From Bacilli bacterium (lineage in GTDB: Bacteria > Bacillota_I > Bacilli_A > RF39 > UBA660): a stretch of DNA of 64,000 nucleotides. Below are positions 967 through 59,322 of the stretch, in pieces. The position numbers were made by a program, and so were the translations under genes. The DNA lies in the NCBI GenBank assembly GCA_017411405.1, contig JAFQQE010000012.1:17280-81279 (forward strand). Reading direction: 5' to 3'. The first letter of the stretch is position 1, and each line of letters starts with the position of its first letter. The notes beneath the pieces are model-generated. The model was not told where the DNA came from. It was given only the letters and a program-made list of their open reading frames with translations, and made no database searches.

Positions 967-1008
967 AATTTATAATTGTATAGTACGAGAGAATTAGGAG
1001 GAGTAAAT

Positions 1009-3240
1009 ATGAATAAAGAATGGAATAGTTTTAAAGAAGGTAAATGGGTTAATGAAATAGATGTAGAAAATTTTATTAGTGAAAATTATATTGAATATAA
1101 GGGAGATGAGTCTTTTTTAGAAGGTATAAGTGAAAAGACTAGTAAAGTTTGGAATAAATGTTTAGATTTATTAAGTGATGAGTTAGAAAAAAAAGTATTA
1201 GATATAGATGTAAATCATATGTCTGGTATAAATTCTTTTAAACCAGGGTATATTGATAAAAAAAATGAAGTTATATTCGGATTACAAACTGATGCTCCAT
1301 TAAAACGTATGGTAAATCCGTATGGTGGGATTAGAATGGTTTACTCTGAATTAGAAGCTTATGGTTATAAATTAAATCCTACTGTAGATAAATATTTTAA
1401 TGAATTTAGAAAAACTCATAATCAAGGAGTATTTGATGCTTACAGTAAAGATATTAAAGTAGCTAGACATGTTGGTTTACTTACTGGATTGCCAGATGCT
1501 TATGGTAGAGGAAGAATTATAGGTGATTTTAGACGAGTTGCTTTATATGGTATAGATAAATTACAAGAACAAAAATTGAATGATTTTAATAATGTTTTTG
1601 TGGGTAGTATGGATGAAAATCTTATAAGACAACGTGAAGAATTATCAATGCAATATAGAGCATTGGAAGAGATGAAAAAGATGGCTTTATCTTATGGATT
1701 TGATATTTCTAAACCTGCTAGCAATTCTTTTGAAGCAGTTGAGTGGACTTATTTAGCTTATTTGGCAGGTGTTAAAGAAAATAATGGTGCTGCAATGTCT
1801 TTAGGTAGAGTAGATGCATTTTTTGATATATATTTTGAGAGAGATTTAAAAAATGGGTTAATCACTGAAAGTGAAATTCAAGAGTTGATAGATCAATTTG
1901 TTATAAAACTTAGACTAGTAAGACATTTACGTACTCCTGAATATGATGAGTTGTTTTCAGGAGATCCTACTTGGGTTACTTGTTCTATTGGTGGTATGAA
2001 AACTAAAGATAAATCTTTAGTTACAAAAACAACTTATAGAGTATTACATACTTTAGAAAACTTAGATACTGCTCCTGAACCTAATATGACTGTTTTATGG
2101 AGTAATCTATTACCAGAAAGTTTTAAAAAATATTGTGCTAAGTTAAGTATAAGTACAGATGCTATTCAATATGAAAATGATGATTTGATGAGTAAAATAT
2201 ATGGTACTGATTATGCTATAGCATGTTGTGTTTCTGCAATGAGACTAGGTAAAGATATGCAATTTTTTGGCGCTAGATGTAATTTAGCTAAGGCATTATT
2301 ATACTCATTAAATGGCGGAGTTGATGAAATAAAAGGCGATAAAGTAATAGATGGTATAGAATTAAATAAGGATAAAGTATTGAATTATGAAAATGTAAAA
2401 GAAAGTTATTTTAAAGTTTTATCTAAGATTGCATTTATTTATAGTAATGCTATGAATATTATTCATTATATGCATGATAAATATGCTTATGAAGCAGGAT
2501 TGATGGCATTACATGATACTGATGTTCATCGTTATATGGCTTATGGTGTTGCTGGTTTATCTGTTGCAGTTGATTCTTTATCTGCTATAAAATATGCTAA
2601 AGTATATCCAATAAGAGATGAAAATGGAATTAGTATTGATTTTAAAATAGACGGCGATTATCCTAAATATGGTAATGATGATGATAGAGTAGATAATATT
2701 GCTCGTGAACTTACTGATTATTTCTTTAATGAGTTAAAAAAACATAAATGTTATAAAGGTGCAGAACCTACTATGTCGGTTTTAACTATAACATCTAATG
2801 TAGTATATGGCGCTAAAACTGGTGCAACTCCTGATGGTAGAAAAAAAGGTGTTGCTTTTGCACCGGGGGCTAATCCTATGCATGGTAGAGATGAAAATGG
2901 AGCTATTTCATCACTTAATTCAGTAGCTAAACTTGATTATTGCAATTCTTGTAAAGATGGTATTTCAAATACATTTACTATTATTCCTGATTCGTTAGGA
3001 AAGGACAATGAATCTAGAATAGATAATTTGGTTTCTTTATTAGATGGATATTTTAAAAAAGGCGCACATCATCTGAATGTAAATGTTTTAAATAGAGAAA
3101 TGCTTATTGATGCTATGAACAATCCAGAAAAATATCCATTACTTACAATAAGAGTTTCTGGTTATAGTGTAAGATTTAATAGACTTACTAGAAAGCAACA
3201 GGAAGAAGTTATTTCAAGGACTTTCCATACTAAATTATGA
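1009..3240 (+). CDS. pflB: pyruvate formate-lyase (glycyl radical enzyme)
   Basis: Glycyl-radical motif RVSGYSVRF near the C-terminus and active-site Cys pair in [12 protein letters not shown] at 1009 follows the RBS AGGAGGAG; the track start at 976 is an upstream TTG. Confidence 0.95.
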
Positions 3241-3959
3241 TAGGTAGTGTAGCAAGTATTGAAACATTTGGTACTCAAGATGGTCCTGGAATAAGAACAG
3301 TAATTTTCTTTAATGAATGTAAATTACGATGTATATATTGTCATAATCCTGAAATGTGGAATAAAGGTATTAAAAATTATTCTGTTGAAGAATTATTTTT
3401 GAGAATAATTAAGAATAAAGAATATTATGGAGAGAATGGTGGGGTAACTTTTTCTGGGGGAGAACCGTTATTACATTCTGAATTTTTGTTAGAATTATGT
3501 AAAAAATTAAAGAATGAAAATATTCACATTGCATTAGATACTGCGGGTATTGCGGAAGTTGATTATGAAGAATTACTAAAGTATGTTGATTTGATTATAT
3601 TTGATGTTAAACATATTAATGAAGAAGGATATAAATTGATAACAAGAACAAATAATTTTAATAAGGCTAATAAGTTTTTATCTGTTGCTAATAAATTAAA
3701 TAAAAAATTTTGGATTAGACAAGTAATAGTACCTGGTATAATGGATAATTGTGATTATTTAATTGGTTTAAAAGAATATCTAAAACGTATTAATAATATA
3801 GAAAAAATAGAGTTTTTACCTTATCATAAATTAGGCTGTGAAAAATATATAAAAATAGGAATTCCTTATTATTGTGAAAATATAAAAGAAATGGATAAAA
3901 TCACATGTGAAAATTTATATAATAAGTTTTTAGAAATATATAATGACAACAATGATTAG
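3237..3959 (+). CDS. pflA: pyruvate formate-lyase activating enzyme (radical SAM)
   Basis: CX3CX2C cluster (CKLRCIYC) and GGEPLL motif. ATGA overlap with the pflB stop suggests translational coupling. Confidence 0.93.
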
Positions 3960-3998: not shown

Positions 3999-4027
3999 TT
4001 GATATATTGTTTTTTATTTGATATAAT
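3999..4027 (+). promoter_or_regulatory. sigma-A type promoter of the 4055-7787 operon
   Basis: -35 TTGATA (3999-4004), 17-nt spacer, -10 TATAAT (4022-4027). Confidence 0.65.
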
Positions 4028-4054
4028 CTTTTTAGAATAGGAAAGAGGCTGGAA

Positions 4055-5179
4055 ATGAATGATTTAGTGGATATATATTTAAATAAATCTAAGACTAATT
4101 TAAAATCAATAGTCAAATGTCTCGAACAAAATATTATATATTTAGATAATAGTATCTGGAGTAATAATAGTGAGTTTGAATTAATAACAAATCGTATTAT
4201 AGATATATATTATGATAAGTATTATATTTATACTAAAAATGATTTTAAAATAATAGATAAATATATAAAATTTAATAAAAATATAAATAGAAAACTTAAG
4301 TGCATATTACTTGCAATTATAGATTATTATGAAGAAATTAGTGAAAGTAATAAACTTAGTATAAATGAAGGTTCTATACTTTATTTAACTATATTAATTT
4401 ATCTAGGTATTAAGTTATATAATACTAATTTTAATAACATAGATACACCTAAAAAGATACAGAGTGTAATAAATAATATAATAGATTATTTTGCTAAAAT
4501 AACTTTTAGAAAAGATAGAAATTTAGAAAGTTTAATTAATAATATAAGAGAGTATGTAGAGTGGAATAATGAATTTAATAGTAAATTAAATAATGTTTAT
4601 TCTAAAGATAGTAAAAATATGTTTGTTAAAATAAATAATAAAGATAATTTTTATAAAGTATTATATGAATATAATATAAATGAATTAAATAGTTTTGATA
4701 ATAAAGATATTAGTATAGTAAATAATAAGATTAATTTAGGTAATGTTTTATCTAATATATCTTTAGATTTAAGTTATATTACACTTTTTAAAGCTTTAAG
4801 TAATGGATTAAATTATATATTCTTATTTGAAGTAGATAAAGATTTCTTTACTGAAGAAAATATAAAAAAAATATGTAGTAAGAATGATTTAGTTACTAAT
4901 AATATAAAGTTCGTTATAGATTATGATAAAATTGAAAAAGATTATGATTTTATTAATATGATTAAGAGCAATAATATTGATTTATATATAGACGTAGTGA
5001 ATAGTTTTGAAACTAATAATTATAATATGTTTATGGATATGAAGAATATTATTATATCTGAAGATTTCTTAAATATGAATGAAAAATATAAAGAGATTTG
5101 GAAAGATATGGGATTAAATTTTATTGTAAAGAATATGTCTAACAAATTAAATGAAAAAAGGTTATTAAGTAGAAAGTAG
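4055..5179 (+). CDS. hypothetical protein, first gene of the McrB-like operon
   Basis: 374-aa ORF with RBS GGAAAGAGG upstream. Its stop is 9 nt before the next start. No family recognised. Confidence 0.6.
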   Translation: MNDLVDIYLNKSKTNLKSIVKCLEQNIIYLDNSIWSNNSEFELITNRIIDIYYDKYYIYTKNDFKIIDKYIKFNKNINRKLKCILLAIIDYYEEISESNKLSINEGSILYLTILIYLGIKLYNTNFNNIDTPKKIQSVINNIIDYFAKITFRKDRNLESLINNIREYVEWNNEFNSKLNNVYSKDSKNMFVKINNKDNFYKVLYEYNINELNSFDNKDISIVNNKINLGNVLSNISLDLSYITLFKALSNGLNYIFLFEVDKDFFTEENIKKICSKNDLVTNNIKFVIDYDKIEKDYDFINMIKSNNIDLYIDVVNSFETNNYNMFMDMKNIIISEDFLNMNEKYKEIWKDMGLNFIVKNMSNKLNEKRLLSRK

Positions 5180-5188
5180 AGGTTTTTT

Positions 5189-6685
5189 ATGGATAATTAT
5201 GGTAATTTTTTTGTAGAATTTTTAACTCCTTTTTTTGAAGGATTGATATCAATATTTAAATCAATATTTGCAGGTATTGTAGAAATGTTTAATATAATTA
5301 AGTATATTGATACAGTAAATGAATATAAAGATACTGTTAATATAGTATTTATAATAATTTCTATTTTATGTTTATTATTATTAATATGTTTATTATCTTA
5401 TGTTATATATTATATAATTAAGAAAACAATTAAAGTTGTTAGAAAGAGTCATGAACAAGATGCTTTATTGGAAGAAGTAGAAAAATTAAATTATGATATG
5501 ATTAAGTTAAAACAAGAAAATGATAAACTTACAACTATGGCAGAAAATATGGGTGCTGATTTAGACGAAAATGGTAATCCAATAACTAAGATCAAAGATG
5601 GAGAAAGTAGATTCTATAAACTTACTGAAATTGATAGTAAATGGGAAAATTATACTCCTGAAGTTCCATTTAATAATAGTTTATCTTTAAAAGATATTTG
5701 TGAATCATTTAGAAATTATGCTGCTAGTGAGTTAGGTTTATATTATACTCCAGAATTAATTAGGTTATTTATTTCTGCATTTTCATCTTCTAGAATAATT
5801 ATATTACAAGGTATATCTGGTACAGGTAAAACATCTTTAGCTTATGCTTTTGGACATTTTTTAGGTAATGATTCAGTTATAGCTCCAGTACAACCTTCAT
5901 GGAGAGATCGTACAGAATTATTTGGATATTTTAATGAATTTACTAAAAGATTTAATGAAACTGAATTATTAAGTAAAATGTATGAAGCAACTTATAATGA
6001 TAAGATATATATAACTATTTTAGACGAAATGAATATAGCTCGTGTAGAATATTATTTTGCAGAAATGTTGTCAATTATGGAAATGCCTGATAAAAAAGAA
6101 TGGAATATTAGTTTAGTTGCAACACCTTGGGAAAATGATCCTAAGAAGATTGTAAATGGTATATTTACGTTACCAGGTAATATGTGGTATATAGGAACTA
6201 TAAATAATGATGATTCAACATTTATGGTAACAGATAAAGTATACGATAGAGCAATGCCTATTGATATTAATGAAAAATGTGCTAAATTTGAAGCTCCTAA
6301 AACTGAGAGTATAAACATTAGTGATGATTATTTAGAAAGTCTTTTTGATGATGCACAAAAGAAAAATCCTATTACTGAAGAAATGCTAAAAAAACTTGAT
6401 GAATTAGATCAATATATTATTGAGCATTTTAGAATATCTTTTGGTAACCGTATATTAAAACAAATAGAAGATTTTGTACCTGTATATGTAGAATGTGGAG
6501 GTACTGAGGTAGATGCAATAGATTATTTGATTTGTGCTAAAATATTAAGAAAATTCGAACAATTAAATCTAGCATTTATAAAAAATGAATTAGATGAGTT
6601 TATTAATTATTTAAATGTTAATTTTGGTAATAAGAATATGAATAGATGTAAAGATTTTATTTTAAGATTAAAAAAATCTATATAG
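5189..6685 (+). CDS. membrane-anchored McrB-family AAA+ GTPase (AAA_5-like) with coiled-coil linker
   Basis: Hydrophobic helix IVFIIISILCLLLLICLLSYVIYYII, then the charged heptad-like stretch EQDALLEEVEKLNYDMIKLKQENDKL. Walker A is GISGTGKTS and Walker B is ITILDEMNIARVEYYFAEMLSIME. YIGTINNDDSTFMVTDKVYDRAM parallels the McrB segment GTMNtADRS...D.AlrRRF. Confidence 0.7.
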   Translation: MDNYGNFFVEFLTPFFEGLISIFKSIFAGIVEMFNIIKYIDTVNEYKDTVNIVFIIISILCLLLLICLLSYVIYYIIKKTIKVVRKSHEQDALLEEVEKLNYDMIKLKQENDKLTTMAENMGADLDENGNPITKIKDGESRFYKLTEIDSKWENYTPEVPFNNSLSLKDICESFRNYAASELGLYYTPELIRLFISAFSSSRIIILQGISGTGKTSLAYAFGHFLGNDSVIAPVQPSWRDRTELFGYFNEFTKRFNETELLSKMYEATYNDKIYITILDEMNIARVEYYFAEMLSIMEMPDKKEWNISLVATPWENDPKKIVNGIFTLPGNMWYIGTINNDDSTFMVTDKVYDRAMPIDINEKCAKFEAPKTESINISDDYLESLFDDAQKKNPITEEMLKKLDELDQYIIEHFRISFGNRILKQIEDFVPVYVECGGTEVDAIDYLICAKILRKFEQLNLAFIKNELDEFINYLNVNFGNKNMNRCKDFILRLKKSI

Positions 6686-6692
6686 GTGAATT

Positions 6693-7787
6693 ATGATAAA
6701 AAATATTACTGATATTATGAATAATGTAAATAATAATGAATTAGAACTATTTATGTCAAATACTGATGCTAATTTTTCTATGAAATCTGATATTAGAGAA
6801 ACAAAAGTTGATTATTCTTGGATTAATGTTTTAGAAGACACTTTATCTAGTTTAGATAAAATTGTTAGAAATCCTAGACGATTTATTGTTCAAGAAGAAG
6901 ATGTTGTTATAGTGGAAAAAATAAAAAGAGTATCGTTAGAAACTATAAAACATTTGGCAGTACATAGTGAGAATATACAAAGTTTAGATGAAAATGGAGA
7001 TGTGGTTCCTAAAAAGTTATTAAATGTACATAAGGAAGATACATCTGATTTATATGAAAATAGGTTTATATATACTTTGGTAACTAGATTGGAATCTTTT
7101 ATAAATAGACAATTAGATGCTTTAGATTTAGAAAGTAAATGTGAAATAAAGAAGAGTGTAGTATATAATGCACAAACCAAAATAGATAATAGAAATATAA
7201 ATATAGAATTGAAATTAGAAGATGATGATATTATATTTACAGATGATGAAGGAGAAGATTATAAAACTAGAATACTTGCATGTTACGAAATAATTAATGC
7301 TTTTAAATCAACGGAGATGATTAAAGAATTAATAGGCTGTAGCTTAGTAAGTAATCCTATTAGAAAGACCAATTTAATATTAAGAGAACCTAATTTTCAA
7401 AAAGCTTTTATACTTTGGGAATATTTAGATAATTATGAATTAAGAGAACCTAAAGTTGTAAATTATGAAAGTATTACAAATAATAGTGATGATATAAAAA
7501 ATGAATTTACATTATCTTATTTTATAAATTCTAATGCAATTAAACAAAATAAAGAAAATTTATTACAATATAAAGATACAGATAATAAATTAAAAAAATT
7601 AATAAATGATTATATATATGAAAATGATAATGATATTAATAAATTAACTAACAAAGCATTTGAATATTATAATAATGCATTAGTAGAAAAACATAATAGG
7701 GAAATTAAGATAGAAGATATATATAATATATTTATAAGTAAAAATAAATCTATTATAGAAGATATTTATTCATTTCTTAATAATTAA
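6693..7787 (+). CDS. McrC/DUF2357-like N-terminal domain protein, no nuclease motif seen
   Basis: The segment DTSDLYENRFIYTLVTRLESFI resembles the (D/E)xxENRF helix of McrC-like/DUF2357 proteins. No hydrophobic-D...(D/E)xK motif is visible in the C-terminal half. Start is 7 nt after the McrB-like gene. Confidence 0.45.
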   Translation: MIKNITDIMNNVNNNELELFMSNTDANFSMKSDIRETKVDYSWINVLEDTLSSLDKIVRNPRRFIVQEEDVVIVEKIKRVSLETIKHLAVHSENIQSLDENGDVVPKKLLNVHKEDTSDLYENRFIYTLVTRLESFINRQLDALDLESKCEIKKSVVYNAQTKIDNRNINIELKLEDDDIIFTDDEGEDYKTRILACYEIINAFKSTEMIKELIGCSLVSNPIRKTNLILREPNFQKAFILWEYLDNYELREPKVVNYESITNNSDDIKNEFTLSYFINSNAIKQNKENLLQYKDTDNKLKKLINDYIYENDNDINKLTNKAFEYYNNALVEKHNREIKIEDIYNIFISKNKSIIEDIYSFLNN

Positions 7788-7788
7788 T

Positions 7789-7818
7789 AAAGTATAAAAA
7801 TATACTTTATTTTTTTTA
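7789..7818 (+). terminator. rho-independent terminator of the 4055-7787 operon
   Basis: Stem AAAGTATA (7789-7796) pairs with TATACTTT (7801-7808), followed by ATTTTTTTT. Confidence 0.65.
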
Positions 7819-7888
7819 TAAAATTAATATGAAGTATTGTTTTTTTATTATCTTTTTTGTATAATTAATAATAAGGAGAGTATGTTTT

Positions 7889-9184
7889 ATGAAAGTAGAA
7901 AAGAAAGATAAAAAAATGAAGAGATTATCAAAAAGTAAAGTTAAGACAATTGTTATAACAGTTGAAGAATTGGAAAAATTAAGTGCTGAAAAACAATTAG
8001 AAAAATTTGAAGAAATATTTGATAAAATATACTCTGGAGAAGAAGTAGAATCAATTAGAAAATATGCTTTAAGATGTGTTAAATTAACATGTGATCCTAA
8101 AGATAATAAAGTACATTTACCTTATGGTGTATTAGTACAAAAAAAGGATAATGATATAATTATTAAACTTTATAATAATAGACATATATTTTTATTCTTA
8201 TTATTTTTAACATTACTTTTCTTTGCGTTATTAGGTTCAAGTTATTCTGTAATTAATTATAATATTATTAAGAATTTTAATAAAGATATAGATGGTGATA
8301 AAATTCCGGATATAAATTTAGAGTTAACTGGTGATAGAAAAAGCGATATTAATATTGATATAAATAATGATGATAAGCCAGATTTAAATATAGATTATGC
8401 TATGAATAGAGAACCTATTTTTAATCGTGATAGAAATCACGATGGTAAAGCAGATCATAATTTAATGAATCAAGATTTGAATCAAGATGGTAAATGTGAT
8501 CTTAATTGTGATATAAATAATGATGGATGGCCTGATATTAATATAAATTTTGATGGGAATAAAAAACCAAATATGCATGTTGATATAGATGGTGATGGTA
8601 AACCTGATTTGAATTTTGATACAAATGGTGATATGAAATGTGATTTACATTGCGATACAAATGAAGATAAGGTATGTGATAAGTGGTGTTTAACAACTCC
8701 AGAATTAGATAATATGGATCATATTAATAGTGGTACAAGTAATACTGTGGGAAATAAGGATGTATTTGTGCAATCAGGTGAATTAGTTCTTGAATATGAA
8801 GAAGATAATACTGTATATATTACAGATATTTATCCTGATGATCAACCTTATTATGTTCAAGATATTCCAACTAAGAAGTTTAAAGTAACAAATAAATCTA
8901 ATTTATATATAAAATATAATTTAAGATGGGTTATAACTTTAAATGATTATGTTTCAGATAATTTTAAATATAAAGTAACAAGTAGTTTAAATACTTTAAA
9001 TACAGATTGGATTACAGCACCAAAATTAACTAGTCCTATGAGTACAGAAATATTAATAAATCCTCATACTACTCAAGAATTTGAAATTGATTTTAAATTA
9101 CAAGGTATAGGTGGAAAACAAAATTATGATCAAGGAAAGACTTTTGCTGGATATATAGAAATTTATTTAGATAATGAGTTTTAA
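7889..9184 (+). CDS. single-pass membrane protein with Ca-binding-loop repeat array and TasA/camelysin-like C-terminal domain
   Basis: RBS AAGGAGAG upstream. TM helix at aa 99-117. Repeat array at aa 133-266. The C-terminal 150 aa are similar to the N-terminal domain of the 20487 ORF. Confidence 0.6.
   Translation: MKVEKKDKKMKRLSKSKVKTIVITVEELEKLSAEKQLEKFEEIFDKIYSGEEVESIRKYALRCVKLTCDPKDNKVHLPYGVLVQKKDNDIIIKLYNNRHIFLFLLFLTLLFFALLGSSYSVINYNIIKNFNKDIDGDKIPDINLELTGDRKSDINIDINNDDKPDLNIDYAMNREPIFNRDRNHDGKADHNLMNQDLNQDGKCDLNCDINNDGWPDININFDGNKKPNMHVDIDGDGKPDLNFDTNGDMKCDLHCDTNEDKVCDKWCLTTPELDNMDHINSGTSNTVGNKDVFVQSGELVLEYEEDNTVYITDIYPDDQPYYVQDIPTKKFKVTNKSNLYIKYNLRWVITLNDYVSDNFKYKVTSSLNTLNTDWITAPKLTSPMSTEILINPHTTQEFEIDFKLQGIGGKQNYDQGKTFAGYIEIYLDNEF
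8285..8686 (+). repeat. about 11 tandem 12-residue (36-nt) D-x-[DN]-x-D-G-K-[PC]-D-x-N-x units inside the CDS
   Basis: Units read off the translation include DIDGDKIPDINL, DINNDDKPDLNI, DRNHDGKADHNL, DLNQDGKCDLNC, DINNDGWPDINI, DIDGDGKPDLNF, DTNGDMKCDLHC and DTNEDKVCDKWC. Confidence 0.8.
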
Positions 9185-9229: not shown

Positions 9230-10288
9230 ATGAAAAAAGTTTATATTATTTTAAGTTTAATTATAATTAATTTGATATTAGTTGTTATTACTTCTTTTTC
9301 TTTTGGTAGTATGTTTTTAAAAAGCAATAATATTATTTCTAAAAAGACAACTACTAAATTTATTACCGAAGTAATAAATAATACTACGGTAAATATTTCT
9401 GCAATAGGAGACTGTACAATTGGTTATGATGATAACTTTGGTTATACAAACAGTTTTAATGAAGTATTAAATAAAAATGGTTATGAATATTTTTTTAGTA
9501 ATGTAAAAAATGTAATAGGATATGATGATATTACTGTTGCTAATTTAGAGGGTACATTTACTGATTATAATCAAAAACGAGAAAAAGCCTTTAATTTTAA
9601 AGGCCCTAAAGATTATGTTAAAGTTTTAACTAAAGGTAGTATTGAGGTAGTAAATTTAGCTAATAATCATACTTATGATTATGGTGATATAGGTTATAAT
9701 GATACTGTTAATACATTAAATGAATCTAATGTTTCTTATTTTGGTTATGATAATTATTATGTATTTAAAAAAGATGATGTAAATATTGGATTTGCTGGAA
9801 TATTTTGTATAGAAAATAGGAACTGTACTACTAAGATAGATAAAGCTATAGAAAATTTAAGAGAAAGAAATGTTGATACAATTATTTTATCTTTTCATTG
9901 GGGGATAGAAAAATCTTATAGACAAAGTAGTATCCAAACTTATTTGGCACATTATGCAATTGATTCTGGAGTGGAATTGGTATTAGGTCATCATCCACAT
10001 GTATTGCAGGGGATAGAGCTTTATAATGATAAATATATAGTTTATAGTTTAGCAAATTTTAGTTTTGGTGGTAATAAAAATCCTGGTGATAAAGATACTA
10101 TGATATTTAATATTAAGTTTAAATATCAAAATAAAAAAATAGTAGATACTATTGTAAATGTTTATCCTACTAGAGTATCAAGTGTAAATAATATTAATGA
10201 TTATAGACCAACTATACTTGATGGCGAAGAGGCAAATAGAGTATTAAAAAAAATAGAAAAAAATAGCATTGGAGTAACTTTAACCTAA
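9230..10288 (+). CDS. CapA/PGA_cap family metallophosphoesterase-like protein (poly-gamma-glutamate capsule type)
   Basis: N-terminal TM anchor. Motifs NLANNHTYDYG, FHWGIE and LGHHPHVLQGIE...VYSLANF are typical of the CapA family. Confidence 0.7.
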   Translation: MKKVYIILSLIIINLILVVITSFSFGSMFLKSNNIISKKTTTKFITEVINNTTVNISAIGDCTIGYDDNFGYTNSFNEVLNKNGYEYFFSNVKNVIGYDDITVANLEGTFTDYNQKREKAFNFKGPKDYVKVLTKGSIEVVNLANNHTYDYGDIGYNDTVNTLNESNVSYFGYDNYYVFKKDDVNIGFAGIFCIENRNCTTKIDKAIENLRERNVDTIILSFHWGIEKSYRQSSIQTYLAHYAIDSGVELVLGHHPHVLQGIELYNDKYIVYSLANFSFGGNKNPGDKDTMIFNIKFKYQNKKIVDTIVNVYPTRVSSVNNINDYRPTILDGEEANRVLKKIEKNSIGVTLT

Positions 10289-11074
10289 TGCTATATCTAA
10301 AATCATCATTAAACTAAACCCAATTAGTGTAATAAAGGCCATAAGGTCTTTTTTTTCACTATTTTGACTTTCTGGTATTATTTCTTCAACTACAACATAT
10401 AACATTGCTCCTGCTGCAAATGCTAGTAGATAAGGCAAAACTATACTCATTTTTAATACTAATGAAGCTCCAATTATTCCTGCTATAGGTTCGACTATTG
10501 CGGAAACTGCTCCTATTAAGAATGCTTTCTTTTTATTTACACCACTACTTACTAAAGGTAGACTTATAGCACTACCTTCTGGAAAGTTTTGTATTCCTAT
10601 ACCTATTGCAAGAGATATAGCTGCTCCGATTGTAGCACCATTTAAACCATATATAACTGAACCAAATGCAACACCTATGGCCATTCCTTCAGGAATATTA
10701 TGTAACATTATTGAAAAGAATAACAAACTAATTCTTTTTTTATTATTTGAGACTTTTATTTTTTTTTCAAATATTTTATCTCCTATAAATAATAGTAAAG
10801 TTCCTCCTAATATGCCAATTGTTAATACAATGCTTGGTATTAAATTCAAGTTTTCTGACATTTCTATTGCAGGATTTATTAATGAAAAGAAACTAGCTGC
10901 AATCATAACTCCTGCACTTATACTTAAAAAAGAATCAAGTAAAGTTTTATTAAATTTTTTAAAGAAAAATACACTTGCTGAACCTAATGCAGTTATCAAA
11001 AATGTAAACATACATGCAATAAATGCTTGTAATGCTGGATTTAATTCATAAAAAAAACTAAACATTTTAATCAC
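10280..11074 (-). CDS. zupT: ZIP family zinc transporter
   Basis: Multi-TM protein with HNIPEGMAIGVAF and QNFPEGSA motifs. Confidence 0.8.
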   Translation of the reverse strand: MIKMFSFFYELNPALQAFIACMFTFLITALGSASVFFFKKFNKTLLDSFLSISAGVMIAASFFSLINPAIEMSENLNLIPSIVLTIGILGGTLLLFIGDKIFEKKIKVSNNKKRISLLFFSIMLHNIPEGMAIGVAFGSVIYGLNGATIGAAISLAIGIGIQNFPEGSAISLPLVSSGVNKKKAFLIGAVSAIVEPIAGIIGASLVLKMSIVLPYLLAFAAGAMLYVVVEEIIPESQNSEKKDLMAFITLIGFSLMMILDIALG

Positions 11075-19403: not shown

Positions 19404-19494
19404 TGGCGGAGTAGAGAGGATTTGAACCTCCGCGCCAGTTACCCGACCTACATCCTTAGCAGGGACGCCTCTTCAGCCTCTTGAGTACTACTCC
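19404..19494 (-). tRNA. tRNA-Ser (anticodon GCU), CCA encoded
   Basis: The reverse complement folds as a class II tRNA. Acceptor GGAGTAG pairs with CTACTCC, anticodon loop is CUGCUAA, there is a long variable arm, and the T-loop is GGTTCAAATCC. Upstream promoter is TTGACA-17-TAAAAT. Confidence 0.9.
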
Positions 19495-20486: not shown

Positions 20487-22262
20487 ATGGATAAAATGGA
20501 TAATGTGAAAAAGCGAATAATAATTAGTATGTGTGCTATTGTTATGCTTATTTTAACTTTAGTTGGAATTACTTATGCATACTTTTTGTCTAAAATAGTT
20601 GGTAATACCAATGATAAAAGTATTGGTATTACTGCAGGTAGATTAGAGTTAACATATGGGGATGGAAATAATACTATCGTTGTAAAAAATTTAGTTCCTG
20701 GAAAAACTATTCAAAGTAAAACTTTTACAGTAGAGAATACTGGTACTAGTTTAGTAGAAAATTATGATGTTTATTTAGAAAATGTAGTTAATGAACTAGA
20801 GTATTATGAAGATTTAACTTATGTATTAGAGTGTACAACTGATAATGGAGAATGTAATGGTAGTAGTGGAGTATTCCCTAAAGGTGATGCTGTAATTGTT
20901 ACTAATTCAATTGATAAAGAGGTAATTCATAATTATAAATTAACTATTACTTATAATGAAACTAATACTGATCAAAGCGACGATATGAATAAAGTAGTAA
21001 GCTGTAAAGTTAATATTAAAGATGATATTGTTAATTTTAAAACTTTTAAAATATATGGAAATAGTATACAAAGTAAATTACCTAGTGAGTATCAACAAGT
21101 AGAATATATTGAAAGTACAGGTACTCAATATATTGATACAGGAGTTGCAAAATGGGAAAATGGTACAAAATTCGAACTTGATATGAAGTTTAAATCTTCC
21201 ACTACGCGTTGTTTGATGGGGTATAGTCCAAACGTAGGGTTTTATTTTGGAAAAAATGCAAGTGATAATTATGAATTAGGCTCGGCTTTTACTATGAATT
21301 TACTTGCTACAGAAAGAAGAGTTTGTACTTTTTATAGAGAAAATGATGTTGCTTATTTAAGTGTTGATGGAAAGACAATTTCAAGAAGCGTTTCACCAAC
21401 AGGTTCTGAACAAACTAACTTTTCAACCTATTTAGCAGGTTATAGTGGTAGTGGAGTGATTTTATACAACATTAAGGCATACAAAGATGATGTTCTTTTA
21501 AGAGATATGATACCTTGTTATCGTAAATCAGATGGTGAGGTAGGTATGTATGATTTAGTAAATGATGTGTTCTATACAAATACAGGAAGTGGAGAATTAA
21601 CAAAAGGAAATGATGTACCTAATATTGAAACACCTATTAAAATTGAAAGTTTAGGTGAATTTGACGAAGAAACTGGAAAATATAAAATATCAGTTAAAGT
21701 CAATGATGAATTAGGAAATGTGATTACAACTTACATTTATCTAAATGAACCTTTAAGAAAAGTAGGAAATTATGCAGATTATATAGATTTAGAAAATAGA
21801 AAAGTTGTTAGAAAAATTGCTAAAGGGATTATTGACGAAACGAGTAGTTTTGGTAAATTTGGAGGTGTAAGTAATTATTCTGCTTTCTATTTACAAAATG
21901 ATAATTTAATAAGTAGAAAAAATCATAAAAATACAAATGTTGATTTATTGTCAAACACTTTTGTGAATTATGCATGTGGTGGAGGAAATGTGAATGATTC
22001 ATGGAGTAATAGTTATCAGATTTGTGGTAGTCTTGCAGATACATATACTAGAATTGATTTTACATTACCTAATACAATTACTGATGTTGATGCTGCTAAG
22101 GACTGGTTAAAAGATAATCCTGTAGAATATTATTATCCTTTGAATAATTCGTATGAAGAAAGTATAAGTATTCCTGACTTTAGTTTGGAAGAAAGTAATA
22201 ATATAGTTGTTTGTAGTGATAACAATGTATGTGCAAGTAATATTGAAGTAGAATTTGATTGA
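20487..22262 (+). CDS. secreted protein: SipW-type signal peptide, TasA/camelysin-like domain, lectin/tail-fibre-like C-terminal modules
   Basis: The signal ends in VGITYAYFLS (TxAyF motif). AGRLELTYGDG...NLVPGKT...FTVENTGTSL resembles the Peptidase_M73/TasA core. The C-terminal part carries EYIESTGTQYIDTG and MYDLVNDVFYTNTGSG motifs. Confidence 0.6.
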   Translation: MDKMDNVKKRIIISMCAIVMLILTLVGITYAYFLSKIVGNTNDKSIGITAGRLELTYGDGNNTIVVKNLVPGKTIQSKTFTVENTGTSLVENYDVYLENVVNELEYYEDLTYVLECTTDNGECNGSSGVFPKGDAVIVTNSIDKEVIHNYKLTITYNETNTDQSDDMNKVVSCKVNIKDDIVNFKTFKIYGNSIQSKLPSEYQQVEYIESTGTQYIDTGVAKWENGTKFELDMKFKSSTTRCLMGYSPNVGFYFGKNASDNYELGSAFTMNLLATERRVCTFYRENDVAYLSVDGKTISRSVSPTGSEQTNFSTYLAGYSGSGVILYNIKAYKDDVLLRDMIPCYRKSDGEVGMYDLVNDVFYTNTGSGELTKGNDVPNIETPIKIESLGEFDEETGKYKISVKVNDELGNVITTYIYLNEPLRKVGNYADYIDLENRKVVRKIAKGIIDETSSFGKFGGVSNYSAFYLQNDNLISRKNHKNTNVDLLSNTFVNYACGGGNVNDSWSNSYQICGSLADTYTRIDFTLPNTITDVDAAKDWLKDNPVEYYYPLNNSYEESISIPDFSLEESNNIVVCSDNNVCASNIEVEFD

Positions 22263-44718: not shown

Positions 44719-45077
44719 TAGCTTAGATAGAGTAATATAGTTCAGGAAGATTTAATTATTTTTTATTAAATCTTAGAAAGTCGTTTGCATTTTTGTAGGA
44801 ATTATATTCAATTAGGTTTTTATAATCGAGCATAGGGTTGGTATCAATTATTAATGTTATGATTGATTATAAGATAACCGCTTTTATTGAAAATTTATTT
44901 ATATGAATAATAAATAAAATCTTGTCAAATCTAAGCATTGCAATTGTAATAGAGAAAGACACTCTGAATGATAAGATGTTGTGCTAAATACTGATAATAT
45001 TTAGTTGTTAGATGGGACATCTACTCACAACTTTTCTTAAACTCGGACCAATAGTATTATCAGTGCTATTGGTTTTT
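44719..45077 (+). ncRNA. candidate structured RNA of about 360 nt, or a long attenuator leader (unclassified)
   Basis: Bounded by the promoter above and a strong terminator. No ORF of 60 aa or more on either strand. Locally G+C-richer patches. Hairpins at 44743-44772 and 45004-45031. Possible long-range pairing of GCTTAGAT (44721-44728) with ATCTAAGC (44929-44936). Confidence 0.4.
45047..45077 (+). terminator. rho-independent terminator or attenuator
   Basis: Perfect 8-bp stem ACCAATAG (45047-45054) / CTATTGGT (45066-45073) followed by TTTTT. Confidence 0.7.
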
Positions 45078-48340: not shown

Positions 48341-49777
48341 ATGCATGATTTTGAAATATTATTAGACGTAATAAAATCTTATAATGAAGAAGAAATAGAA
48401 AGAATTAAAAAAGCGTATTCTTTTGCTAGTGAGGCACATAAAAATCAAGTTAGACAAAGTGGGGAACCTTATATAATTCATCCAATAAACGTTTGTATTA
48501 ATTTGGCTAAATTTCATGCGGATGGTGCAACACTTGTTGCTGGTATGTTACATGATGTAGTTGAAGATACTAAATATACTATAGAAGATATAGAAAATGA
48601 ATTTGGTAGCGAGGTTGCTAAATTAGTTTTGGGTGTTACTAAAATTAATGATATTCATTTTTCTTCTTTAGATGAAGCTAGAGATGCTAATATTAGAAGA
48701 ATTATTACTAGTTTAAATGACGATGTAAGAATAATTATTATAAAACTTTGTGATAGACTTCATAATATGAGAACTTTAAAGTTTAAGGAATCATTTAAAC
48801 AACAAAGAAGTGCATTGGAGACTTTATCTATTTTTGTTCCTTTAGCATATTTTATTGGAGCTTTTAGATTAAAATGTGAACTTGAAGATATTTGTTTGTC
48901 TTATTTAAAACCTGAAATATATGAAGATTTATTAAAAAAACAACAAAGAATTAAAAGAGAATATTCTCATTGTATTGAAATAACTTCTAAAAAGATATCA
49001 GAAATGTTAGATAGTAATTCAATAAAATATGAGATGCGTTCAAAGTTAATTAATATTTATAATGTATATAAAAAAATTAAAAGAGGGTATAAAATAAATG
49101 AAATTCATGATTTAGTTAATATAAAAGTTATTGTTGAAACTCGTGATGAATGTTATAGAGTCTTGGGGTTAGTACATAAATTATTTAAGCCAATGAATTA
49201 TAAATTTAAAGATTATATTGCTACACCTAAAACTAATATGTATAGATCTTTACATACTACAGTTTTTGGTCCTTTAGAAAAATTAATTCAAATTCAAATA
49301 AAAACTAAGGATATGGATAATATAAATACTTATGGACTTGCTAGTTATTGGAATCAATATAGAGGTATGGGTAGTAAAAAAATGCAGGAAGAATTATTAC
49401 GTAATTATCAATTTATGTCTACTATTACTGATTTAAATGAAACTATTAAAAATGATAAAGCTTTTATAGAAAAAATAAAAAATGAAATATTTAGTAATAA
49501 TATATATGTATATACTGCTAATGGTGATATAGTTGAATTACCTAATAATTCTACTCCAATTGATTTTGCTTATAAAATACATACTAATATTGGTAATCAT
49601 TTATCTAAATGTTTTGTTAATGGAGATGAAGTATCTTTAGATTATAAATTAAAAAATAAAGATAGAATTATTGTAATTGTAAAAGATAGTAGTCATCCAT
49701 ATAAAAAGTGGTTGAATATAGTTACTACTAGCTTAGCTAAAAGAAAAATAAAAGAGTATTTTAAAAGTAAAGAATAA
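48341..49777 (+). CDS. rel: RelA/SpoT homologue (HD, synthetase-like and TGS domains) lacking the C-terminal regulatory domains
   Basis: SGEPYIIHP, MLHDVVEDT, CDRLHNMRTL, KDYIATPKTNMYRSLHTTV and a TGS segment (YVYTANGDIVELPNNSTPIDFAYKIH). 478 aa. Confidence 0.8.
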   Translation: MHDFEILLDVIKSYNEEEIERIKKAYSFASEAHKNQVRQSGEPYIIHPINVCINLAKFHADGATLVAGMLHDVVEDTKYTIEDIENEFGSEVAKLVLGVTKINDIHFSSLDEARDANIRRIITSLNDDVRIIIIKLCDRLHNMRTLKFKESFKQQRSALETLSIFVPLAYFIGAFRLKCELEDICLSYLKPEIYEDLLKKQQRIKREYSHCIEITSKKISEMLDSNSIKYEMRSKLINIYNVYKKIKRGYKINEIHDLVNIKVIVETRDECYRVLGLVHKLFKPMNYKFKDYIATPKTNMYRSLHTTVFGPLEKLIQIQIKTKDMDNINTYGLASYWNQYRGMGSKKMQEELLRNYQFMSTITDLNETIKNDKAFIEKIKNEIFSNNIYVYTANGDIVELPNNSTPIDFAYKIHTNIGNHLSKCFVNGDEVSLDYKLKNKDRIIVIVKDSSHPYKKWLNIVTTSLAKRKIKEYFKSKE

Positions 49778-58307: not shown

Positions 58308-58392
58308 TGGTGCAGGTAACAGGACTTGAACCTGCACGGAAGAATCCACTAGATCCTAAGTCTAGCGCGTCTGCCAGTTCCGCCATACCTGC
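58308..58392 (-). tRNA. tRNA-Leu (anticodon UAG), CCA encoded
   Basis: In the reverse complement, acceptor GCAGGTA pairs with TACCTGC. Anticodon loop is CUUAGGA. It has a long variable arm and T-loop GGTTCAAGTCC. Confidence 0.9.
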
Positions 58393-58403
58393 AATTAAAA
58401 AAA

Positions 58404-58480
58404 TGGTGGATCTTGTAGGACTCGAACCTACGACCGCCCGGTTATGAGCCGGATGCTCTAACCAACTGAGCTAAAGATCC
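58404..58480 (-). tRNA. tRNA with CAU anticodon (elongator Met, or more likely lysidine-type Ile2), CCA encoded
   Basis: Acceptor GGATCTT pairs with AAGATCC and the anticodon loop is CUCAUAA. The body closely resembles the tRNA-Ile(GAU) in this window. It lacks the initiator-type GGG:CCC anticodon stem. Confidence 0.85.
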
Positions 58481-58724
58481 GTAATCCGCCATTGCCATTT
58501 AATAATAACATATTTATTTTTTAGATGCAATATATTTTTTAAAAAAACTTAAATTTTTTGTAAAAAATATTTTTTTTATGCATTCGGCTCTATAACTTTT
58601 CTTTATAAAGCATAGTTAATGTACTGAGTATTAAATTTATTGTGATTAAAAGATATTTTCTAATGTTTATGATTTATAAAATTTTTATAAAAAAAACTAA
58701 CATTTCTGTTAGCAAGTTACTATT

Positions 58725-58801
58725 TGGTGACCCGTACGGGATTTGAACCCATGAATGCATGCGTGAAAGGCATGTGTGTTAAACCACTTCACCAACGGGC
58801 C
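58725..58801 (-). tRNA. tRNA-Glu (anticodon UUC), copy 1, CCA encoded
   Basis: Acceptor GGCCCGT pairs with ACGGGTC and the anticodon loop is CUUUCAC. It has its own promoter (TTGACT-17-TATATT) and its own terminator hairpin. Confidence 0.9.
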
Positions 58802-58872
58802 ATAACAAATGACTAGTTAAATATACTATATAATATTGGTTAAGTCAAGTATATTTTTTATTTTTTAATAAT

Positions 58873-58901
58873 ATTAAGTGAGGTCAAAGGTTTAAGTCCA
58901 T
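58873..58901 (+). pseudogene. tRNA-Ile-like 3'-half fragment (plus strand)
   Basis: ATTAAGTGAGGTCAAAGGTTTAAGTCCAT compared with functional ATAAGCGTGAGGTCGATGGTTCAAGTCCAT. Confidence 0.4.
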
Positions 58902-58936
58902 AAAAAAACTCATCAAAAGATGAGTTATATTTTAAT

Positions 58937-59013
58937 TGGTGACCCGTACGGGATTTGAACCCATGAATGCATGCGTGAAAGGCATGTGTGTTAAACCACT
59001 TCACCAACGGGCC
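58937..59013 (-). tRNA. tRNA-Glu (anticodon UUC), copy 2, identical to copy 1
   Basis: The 77 nt are identical to 58725-58801. It lies 8 nt downstream of tRNA-Ile on the minus strand. Confidence 0.9.
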
Positions 59014-59021
59014 AATCAAAA

Positions 59022-59098
<77 letters not shown>

Positions 59099-59164
59099 GT
59101 TTTAATTGACTACATTATTATATCTAAATTATTATTATTTTGTCAATAACTTTATTAAAAATTT

Positions 59165-59198
59165 TAGCTCACTGTTAAGCGCACTTGCGATAAGCTGA
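59165..59198 (+). pseudogene. tRNA-Ile-like 5'-half fragment (plus strand)
   Basis: TAGCTCACTGTTAAGCGCACTTGCGATAAGCTGA compared with functional TAGCTCAGCTGGTTAGAGCGCACGCCTGATAAGCGTGA. Confidence 0.4.
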
Positions 59199-59246
59199 TT
59201 TTTAATATAAAAAGATTGCATTTGTGCAATCAATTAATTAACAAAA

Positions 59247-59322
59247 TGGTGGACTGTTAGGGATTCGAACCCTAGACCCACTGATTAAGAGTCAGTTGCT
59301 CTACCAACTGAGCTAACAGTCC
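59247..59322 (-). tRNA. tRNA-Lys (anticodon CUU), CCA encoded
   Basis: Acceptor GGACTGT pairs with ACAGTCC and the anticodon loop is CUCUUAA. T-loop is GGTTCGAATCC. Confidence 0.9.

Follow-up and report, generated by a model that had tools for sequence, protein, structure and literature searches.

A four-gene operon encoding a predicted membrane-anchored McrB-family NTPase and a nuclease-less McrC-like partner in a Bacilli bacterium

We analyzed a 64,000-nucleotide stretch of DNA (hereafter, the window) from a Bacilli bacterium (contig JAFQQE010000012.1 of assembly GCA_017411405.1). It contains a conserved unit of four genes, two of which are related to McrBC, the textbook GTP-driven restriction enzyme. 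All four open reading frames (ORFs) are on the + strand: ORF1 (4055-5179, 374 amino acids); ORF2 (5189-6685, 498 amino acids, 9 nt after ORF1); ORF3 (6693-7787, 364 amino acids, 7 nt after ORF2); and ORF4 (7889-9184, 431 amino acids). ORF2 is a predicted NTPase of the McrB family with its own membrane anchor, and ORF3 is a McrC-like protein that appears to lack a nuclease. We think that there is roughly an even chance that these four genes are a variant, without a peptidase, of the McrBC derivatives known as CoCoPALM, and that the locus is a housekeeping machine of the cell envelope, not a restriction system.

This is not the first sighting of such genes. Bell et al. (eLife 2024, PMC11090510) reported a large clade of NxD-type McrB GTPases that are fused to an FtsB-like transmembrane segment and a coiled coil, and named the clade CoCoPALM. 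Its McrC partners often have no nuclease, coiled coils are usually present on both the McrB and the McrC homologues, and the class is linked to signal peptidases. CoCoPALM received one paragraph in that paper, was deferred to a future paper, and is uncharacterized. We found no follow-up in the later literature that we searched and no mention in the eLife supplements that we examined. The original prediction for this DNA, which was made from the sequence alone, had called ORF1-ORF3 a self-contained operon with a new architecture. Its three ORFs and the 9- and 7-nt gaps between them are exactly as it gave them, but the unit includes ORF4 and the architecture had already been recorded. These genes are common in gut bacteria and under strong conservation, yet their mechanism is unexplained; the four-gene form, as the smallest version of the system, is a convenient entry for biochemistry and structural work.

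Our comparisons rely on a scan in which each species was represented by a single genome; it found a relative of ORF2 in at least 591 species genomes. From the best 80 of these we drew 79 related loci, which are labelled with an L and a number. The best 80 are metagenome-assembled genomes from the gut. They belong to the Bacilli (with the labels "Bacilli", "Tenericutes", or Erysipelotrichaceae) and to the Clostridia (Oscillospiraceae, Ruminococcus, Acutalibacteraceae, and Christensenellaceae). We called ORFs in the related loci and clustered them into families, of which F3 includes ORF1, F5 includes ORF4, and F2 is a family of peptidases.

ORF2, a predicted McrB-family NTPase with a membrane anchor

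The AAA+ core of ORF2 (amino acids 186-403, positions 5744-6397, + strand) aligns to E. coli McrB. Its only significant matches in the PDB were three McrB sequences from E. coli (6hz4, 6ut6, and 7vsr; E = 1e-8). Nothing else had E < 0.01 (RuvBL was at E ~0.9), and a profile of the ORF2 family again found McrB. McrB was also the top match in NCBIfam (E = 7e-9), at 34.9 bits, which is far under the equivalog cutoff of 637, and AAA_5 from Pfam was slightly below its cutoff (19.4 bits vs. 22). There was no MoxR-type match in Pfam, NCBIfam, or the PDB. The proposal that ORF2 resembles McrB and not MoxR therefore held up.

Walker A (GISGTGKTS, amino acids 208-216) aligns with GPPGVGKT of E. coli McrB, and Walker B (ILDEMN, amino acids 277-282) aligns with IIDEIN. 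Further along, IGTINNDDST aligns without gaps to IGLMNTADRS from E. coli and to IGTANHDETT from CnuB. NNDD suits both an NxxD signature and an NxD signature that is followed by D/E, so this motif alone does not settle which branch ORF2 belongs to. An alignment of 15 ORF2 homologues from Bacilli and Clostridia (alignment A1) shows no variation in the two Walker motifs or in NNDD. The other motifs that had been singled out as McrB-like, ILDEMNIARVEYYFAEMLSIME and YIGTINNDDSTF...DKVYDRAM, are present as quoted, and most of the motif residues are invariant across the 15 homologues.

Other similarities point to the CoCoNuT systems. The best tblastn matches of ORF2 in plasmids are AAA ATPases of about 800 amino acids (34-40% identity, E ~1e-50). 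As in CoCoNuT systems, the genes for these CnuB-like ATPases, in Polaromonas and Deinococcus, adjoin genes for DUF2357 proteins and for large proteins with AAA domains. ORF2 and the CnuB-like proteins share an insert (VQxxWRxR...FNxFxKR), the NxD[D/E] signature, and a C-terminal lid (FRxxxGNR...FVPV...GG). Similarly, ORF2 matches the PADLOC model PDC-M26A (E = 1.1e-40), in part (model positions 223-436 of 724), which fits its CoCoNuT-like kinship. The PDC models are unpublished and unvalidated candidates, and ORF1, ORF3, and ORF4 do not match any PADLOC model, including the other components of PDC-M26. From these sequence comparisons, we conclude that ORF2 is a McrB-family NTPase that is closest to the NxD/CoCoNuT-type GTPases and has intact catalytic motifs.

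The family is large, with over 8,000 clusters of homologues. The 120 homologues that we listed have 441-646 amino acids, and nearly all have about 500; the 120th is still 57% identical to ORF2. The 646-amino-acid homologue (P0048) has an internal duplication of about 145 residues in the GTPase/lid region, which is either an assembly artefact or real.

The N-terminus of ORF2 has no match to a DNA-binding family in Pfam. Instead, it has a hydrophobic segment, a transmembrane helix, and a coiled coil. The first segment (amino acids 19-37, positions 5243-5299) is moderately hydrophobic and rich in phenylalanine (19-residue Kyte-Doolittle mean of 1.8), and might be a first transmembrane helix or an interfacial helix; F7, F11, and Y39 near it are conserved. 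The second (amino acids 46-81, positions 5324-5431) is a strong transmembrane helix (Kyte-Doolittle maximum of 3.37) followed by KKTIKVVRK. By the positive-inside rule, as applied to the flanking charges, the C-terminal part of ORF2 would be cytoplasmic. A coiled coil of about four heptads follows (amino acids 93-121, positions 5465-5551), in which Asn111 occupies an 'a' position. In one register, nine of the 12 a/d positions are L, I, V, M, or N, and the other registers have at most six. Both the transmembrane helix and the heptad-like linker had been noticed in the original prediction. The N-terminus also has weak matches to bZIP, FtsL, and DUF7491 (E = 0.047 for FtsL_2 and E = 0.14 for ftsL_broad).

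ORF3, a McrC-like partner

Amino acids 27-146 of ORF3 (positions 6771-7130) match DUF2357 from Pfam (PF09823; E = 4.3e-12, 46.2 bits vs. a cutoff of 23.3). The DLYENRFIYTL helix, which had suggested a relationship to McrC, lies inside this match, and PF09823 is present in all 120 ORF3 homologues that we listed. DUF2357 is the sole tie between ORF3 and McrC: beyond this domain, searches of Pfam, PADLOC, NCBIfam, and the PDB gave nothing for ORF3, and the solved McrC in the PDB was missed both by the single sequence and by the profile. In 73 of the 79 loci, a homologue of ORF3 is directly 3' of ORF2, and the median distance between the two is 16 nt.

The C-terminal half of ORF3 does not look like a nuclease. 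Across 38 homologues, the invariant residues after amino acid 130 are either hydrophobic or within a conserved PIRKTN...LWEYL motif, and there is no D...(D/E)xK pattern or conserved D/E/K triad in this region. In the AlphaFold2 model (predicted local distance difference test, or pLDDT, of 77), amino acids 190-364 form helices and one strand, so this half is not the alpha/beta core of a PD-(D/E)xK nuclease. The protein ends in a 48-residue helix (amino acids 315-362, positions 7635-7778). Foldseek matches for ORF3 (to TolC-like proteins, with E > 2e-3 and TM-scores of about 0.15) were dismissed as meaningless. Orthologues from Clostridia are longer (600-900 amino acids), and the extension is only coiled coil, which runs for several hundred residues and in L041 is rich in K and E. 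No PDDEXK family matched any orthologue, including the long ones. As had been suspected, then, the nuclease appears to be genuinely absent from ORF3, as judged from the model and the sequences.

This bears on the idea that the locus encodes an ordinary McrBC restriction enzyme with a cryptic nuclease in the C-terminus of ORF3 or in ORF1. The gene order, AAA+ and then DUF2357, is that of mcrBC, and the C-terminal domain of ORF1 is predicted to be alpha/beta. However, the helical C-terminal half of ORF3 lacks a conserved acidic/lysine motif, the PDDEXK families match none of its orthologues, ORF1 is invariant only at Met1 and has no structural match, and ORF2 is membrane-anchored and has no DNA-binding N-terminal domain. 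We consider a cryptic nuclease to be very improbable.

A conserved operon of four genes

ORF4 lies directly 3' of ORF3 in 27 related loci, usually about 20 nt away, so it belongs to the conserved unit, which consists of ORF1-ORF4. The expectation that ORF1-ORF3 would be kept together was borne out for ORF2 and ORF3 and, to a lesser extent, for ORF1, whose homologues are directly 5' of ORF2 in 44 of the 79 loci; that expectation had left out ORF4.

ORF1-ORF3 are preceded by a sigma-70-type promoter with an extended -10 element (TTGATA-N14-TGA-TATAAT, positions 3999-4027, + strand), which had been noticed as a near-consensus promoter. In a consensus scan of 6 kb for promoters and terminators, TTGATA-17-TATAAT was the top site on the + strand (11 of 12 consensus positions, with TG preceding the -10). 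This DNA, which has 17-29% G+C, shows no enrichment of generic promoter-like sites (77 found vs. 65 ± 8 expected), but the extended form (TTGAYA-N14-TGN-TATAAT) occurs just once in the 64 kb, vs. 0.04 times expected. In L003, L002, and L004, the promoter is kept 5' of the orthologue of ORF1, as is the AAAGAGG core of the ribosome-binding site (GGAAAGAGG, positions 4040-4048) that precedes the ATG of ORF1. We accept the promoter because the extended -10 is unique in the window and is conserved, along with AAAGAGG, in these three loci.

After ORF3, there is an AT-rich hairpin and a T-run (positions 7786-7818). Only one of the 11 base pairs in the stem of the hairpin is G-C, the loop has 4 nt, and RNAfold gives the hairpin -7.9 kcal/mol (z = -2.6). 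The consensus scan, which demands G+C-rich stems for terminators, found no terminator in the 6 kb, which explains why it missed this one. The hairpin that had been proposed to end the operon is real but weak, and is either an intrinsic terminator or an attenuator.

The spacer between ORF3 and ORF4 (positions 7788-7888) has 101 nt in the window vs. 200 nt in L003 (L003 positions 5763-5962), and each of these spacers contains a hairpin, a T-run, and its own -10 element. In L001, L002, and L004, ORF4 begins about 20 nt after ORF3, with the same ribosome-binding site and without a hairpin. Thus the internal terminator and promoter are derived, and they look like a lineage-specific insertion into an ancestral four-gene operon.

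ORF1 and ORF4

ORF1 matched nothing in Pfam, PADLOC, NCBIfam, or the sequences of the PDB, in agreement with the original prediction. The AlphaFold2 model (pLDDT of 79.5, predicted TM-score of 0.76) has a helical N-terminal domain, a disordered linker, and an alpha/beta C-terminal domain, and Foldseek found nothing at E < 1e-3 in the PDB or BFVD. Weaker Foldseek matches (E ~0.2-1), including one to the EAL protein 3kzp (TMt of 0.39), raised the possibility of a degenerate EAL domain or TIM barrel. A comparison by hhalign to the EAL family that is found in some related loci (the type C loci, described below) gave a probability of just 0.3%, so the EAL reading is unsupported.

The family of ORF1 is small: a HMMER scan of 1.84 billion representatives found just 28 clusters, all of about 375 amino acids. 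The start methionine is the sole invariant residue, and K246 is nearly invariant. Hydropathy analysis found no hydrophobic segment in ORF1. ORF1 is likely to be a cytoplasmic, fast-evolving orphan adaptor rather than an enzyme.

ORF4 matches the hidden Markov model (HMM) for F5 with E = 3.7e-163, and Pfam has no family for it or its relatives. Amino acids 1-95 form a lysine-rich cytoplasmic domain, which is followed by a single transmembrane segment (amino acids 96-123, positions 8174-8257). The part outside the membrane has aspartate-rich repeats of the DxDxDG type with paired cysteines and then a beta-rich C-terminal domain. We predict from its hydropathy that ORF4 is a bitopic membrane protein with its N-terminus inside and its C-terminus outside. 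A C-terminal stretch of ORF4, QGKTFAGYIEIY, resembles QGKSFAGQLQVY from the F94 protein of L005; this is a match of 18 residues with E = 0.001, and is only a hint.

Signal peptidases and secreted proteins near the relatives

Among the loci from the best 80 genomes, relatives of ORF2 and ORF3 lie in same-strand clusters with a signal peptidase of the SipW type and paralogous secreted proteins. The peptidase in these clusters belongs to the archaeal-type signal peptidase I/SipW family (TIGR02228, 98.7 bits vs. a cutoff of 51.85). The loci are of three types. Type A loci resemble the window and have ORF1-ORF2-ORF3-ORF4. Type B loci, from other Bacilli, have a protein of about 960 amino acids, a peptidase-like gene, three secreted proteins, ORF1-ORF2-ORF3, a peptidase, and further secreted proteins. 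Type C loci, which are mainly from Clostridia (a few are labelled as Bacilli), start with an EAL/HD protein and three secreted paralogues; these are followed by a peptidase, ORF2, and a long ORF3, and then by up to three more secreted paralogues and a second peptidase. A SipW-type peptidase is present in all 31 type C loci and all 17 type B loci.

The secreted families share an N-terminal signal-anchor with a motif similar to TYAWF, and the transmembrane region of ORF4 aligns with the signal-anchor regions of these SipW-linked families. Two of the secreted families each have one weak match to Peptidase_M73 (camelysin/TasA), which is a hint only. Beyond this hint, homology of the secreted families and of ORF4 to TasA or camelysin was not supported, as there was no profile match in the PDB and no match at normal thresholds in Pfam or NCBIfam.

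The peptidase and secreted-family HMMs found nothing in the window except for one possibly associated secreted protein (positions 20487-22262, + strand, 591 amino acids), which matches the HMM for F14 (E = 4.6e-9). It has a signal-anchor, ...LVGITYAYFLS, and is 38% identical over 109 amino acids to L005:3812-4519. This protein may be linked to the operon, and its signal-anchor would imply that a SipW-type peptidase is encoded elsewhere in the genome.

The EAL/HD proteins at the start of L041 (L041:3022-4368) and of other type C loci have EAL (E = 1.7e-50) and HD_5 domains. As putative phosphodiesterases, they suggest that the type C clusters are under the control of cyclic di-GMP. Type B loci have two SipW-like genes. 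In one example, L073, the upstream copy (3006-3650) has no SMxP serine motif and matches SipW with E = 1.4e-4 only, so it might be a pseudo-peptidase, whereas GSMKG and VHRI are retained in the downstream copy (9729-10310). A few kb from the cluster in L005, there is a collagen-like protein (L005:13441-14304, - strand) that is almost all G-x-T triplets (GPTGATGATG...).

Comparison to known systems

The locus is similar to CoCoPALM in three ways. ORF2 is an NxD-type McrB GTPase with an N-terminal transmembrane segment and coiled coil, although its FtsB/FtsL matches are weak; ORF3 is a DUF2357 partner without a nuclease, with long coiled coils in the orthologues from Clostridia; and the relatives of ORF2 at 50-58% identity adjoin SipW-type signal peptidases. 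In contrast to CoCoPALM, the 64-kb window and 24 of the 26 window-type (type A) loci are without a signal-peptidase gene, and the coiled coils of the locus are short (that of ORF2 has about four heptads, and ORF3 has a single helix of 48 residues). The locus also adds ORF1 (F3) and ORF4 (F5), neither of which is mentioned in PMC11090510. Because of the missing peptidase, the short coiled coils, and the presence of ORF1 and ORF4, we classify the locus as a variant of CoCoPALM and not as a plain member.

The CoCoNuT systems (CnuB/CnuC with HEPN or other nucleases; PMC11090510) also have a GTPase domain like that of ORF2 and a DUF2357 partner. Unlike CoCoNuT, this locus has no tandem nucleases, helicase, or RNA-binding domains, and there is no nuclease domain in ORF1-ORF4. 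Its coiled coil has about four heptads, as opposed to hundreds of residues, ORF2 is membrane-anchored, and the locus is chromosomal and housekeeping-like instead of being borne on islands or plasmids. Similarly, E. coli McrBC (6hz4, 6ut6, and 7vsr) has AAA+ core motifs that align to ORF2 without gaps and a DUF2357 partner that is encoded immediately downstream, but the locus has no DNA-binding N-terminal domain or PD-(D/E)xK nuclease, and ORF2 is tethered to the membrane.

In Staphylococcus aureus, a McrB-family AAA+ protein, PcdA, takes part in the selection of the division plane, together with DivIVA and FtsZ (reviewed in PMC12272431). PcdA resembles what we propose for ORF2, by description only, as a McrB-family NTPase with a role other than restriction at the membrane or septum. 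It differs in having a degraded nucleotide pocket, whereas ORF2 has intact motifs, its own transmembrane anchor, and a McrC-like partner.

By analogy to PcdA, ORF2 could be a factor for cell division or membrane remodelling whose FtsB/FtsL-like anchor, a transmembrane segment and coiled coil, brings a McrB-type NTPase to the septum. Besides this precedent, Bell et al. (PMC11090510) termed the N-terminal module FtsB-homologous, ORF2 has the weak matches to FtsL_2 and ftsL_broad, and it is strongly conserved in small genomes. However, those matches are far below threshold (E = 0.05-0.14), and the coiled coil of ORF2 would be cytoplasmic, which is the opposite of the topology of FtsB. There are no adjoining division genes (a FtsK-like gene is 15 kb away), and the conserved neighbours of the relatives are secreted proteins and signal peptidases. 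A role in division is improbable, in our view.

Conservation and chromosomal setting

Between Bacilli and Clostridia, proteins from the same loci are 51-58% identical for ORF2, 27-42% for ORF3, and 22-30% for ORF1. This combination of a constant ORF2 with diverged ORF3 and ORF1 suggests that the loci diverged long ago while the motor was strongly constrained, and it speaks against recent transfer. When compared to the nearest relative, L003, ORF2 (83% identity) is conserved about like the neighbouring RNase J (89%); a ZupT-like protein is at 78%, ORF4 and a CapA-like protein are at 69%, ORF3 is at 68%, and ORF1 is at 54%. Downstream, synteny with the genes for CapA, ZupT, and RNase J is retained, and the base composition of the operon is the same as that of its flanks. 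A full-length homologue of ORF2 was not found in any of 50,697 phage records or 72,556 plasmid records, so we rejected an origin from a mobile element. Two metagenomic records that are labelled as phages contain partial homologues of ORF2.

Immediately 5' of the operon are genes for pyruvate formate-lyase and its activating enzyme (positions 976-3959, + strand). The upstream neighbour in L003 is instead a protein of 478 amino acids whose homologue, at 77% identity, is at positions 48341-49777 of the window. Because the upstream neighbours differ, there must be a rearrangement breakpoint just 5' of the promoter.

A proposed role at the cell envelope

Most likely, the locus serves the envelope or a surface fibre. 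The presence of related clusters in hundreds of gut Firmicutes suggests a service to secreted surface proteins and not the cutting of DNA. A housekeeping role in the envelope is favoured by the conservation of ORF2, the retained synteny, the matching composition, the absence of mobile copies, the lack of an effector domain, and the precedent of PcdA, and also because the relatives are embedded in clusters with SipW-type peptidases and secreted proteins. Scans against Pfam, PADLOC, and NCBIfam found no nuclease or effector domain in ORF1-ORF4, and nuclease or other catalytic signatures are absent outside of the NTPase of ORF2. The original prediction had offered a defence module or an envelope-associated module; our results support the latter and make the former less plausible.

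In E. coli McrBC, the N-terminal domain of McrC enters the ring of McrB and stimulates GTP hydrolysis. By extension, a hexamer of ORF2 would be held beneath the membrane by its transmembrane and coiled-coil stalks, and the DUF2357 "finger" of ORF3 could plug into this ring as an activating "cam". The C-terminal helix of ORF3, together with ORF1, might link the cytoplasmic domain of ORF4 to the movement that GTP drives. In general, the motor would act on signal-anchored secreted proteins, in their extraction or presentation or in the assembly of a surface structure (similar to a fibre or a pilus). In the relatives, SipW-type peptidases would cleave the signal-anchored substrates; in this lineage, with no adjacent peptidase, ORF4 would stay anchored in the membrane.

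More broadly, we tentatively suggest, at somewhat less than even odds, that a McrBC motor was exapted as a GTP-powered membrane machine for the signal-anchored proteins of a fibre or pilus-like surface structure, and that this new kind of machine occurs widely in gut Firmicutes, which maintain it by vertical descent. The four-gene form would be a streamlined, peptidase-independent version from Bacilli with small genomes, in which the substrate, ORF4, stays membrane-anchored. If so, an immune motor lost its DNA binding and its nuclease, gained a membrane anchor, and was recruited to the biology of the cell envelope. This could be a previously unknown mechanism of secretion or fibre assembly in abundant and mostly uncultured gut bacteria.

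Several observations weigh against a role in the envelope. A SipW-type peptidase is nearby in only two of the 26 type A loci, and the HMM for F2, the peptidase family, has no match within the 64 kb. The link to secretion here comes from ORF4 and from relatives that are more distant. Pfam, NCBIfam, and the PDB gave no significant matches for the secreted families, and CoCoPALM itself is recorded but uncharacterized. The assembly of TasA fibres in Bacillus subtilis is not known to require an NTPase. Finally, the nearest characterized relatives, McrBC, are conflict systems, as are the CoCoNuT systems by prediction, and ORF2 matches a candidate defence model (PDC-M26A).

These last two points also favour a role for the locus in conflict or in defence against phages, as a member of the CoCoNuT/McrBC lineage. 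A membrane GTPase would then sense infection (for example, the entry of DNA or RNA at the membrane, or a signal from ORF4) and would kill or arrest the cell via the membrane or via ORF1 as an unrecognized effector. Similarly, ORF1 and ORF4 evolve quickly, as conflict proteins often do, and there are the partial homologues in phage-labelled records. However, effector domains such as a nuclease or HEPN are absent, and ORF1 lacks any catalytic residue that is conserved. The PADLOC check that had been proposed was positive for ORF2, in part and to an unvalidated candidate, but negative for the other three proteins. Furthermore, ORF2 is conserved at the level of a housekeeping gene, the flanking genes are housekeeping and syntenic with no anomaly in composition, the mobile-element collections that we searched have no full-length copies, and the relatives sit within clusters of signal peptidases and secreted proteins. 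We therefore consider defence to be unlikely. If the locus is defensive nonetheless, then it is a nuclease-free, membrane-acting derivative of McrBC, which would likewise be unstudied.

Other features of the window

Rfam identified no structured RNA inside or adjoining the operon. Elsewhere in the window, there is a PGK RNA motif (positions 44914-45004, + strand; RF03040, 85.8 bits vs. a gathering score of 50.8). A cluster of tRNAs on the - strand (positions 58308-59322) has the order Leu-Met-Glu-Glu-Ile-Lys, with tRNA-Glu(ttc) duplicated, and a separate tRNA-Ser(gct) is at positions 19404-19494 (- strand).

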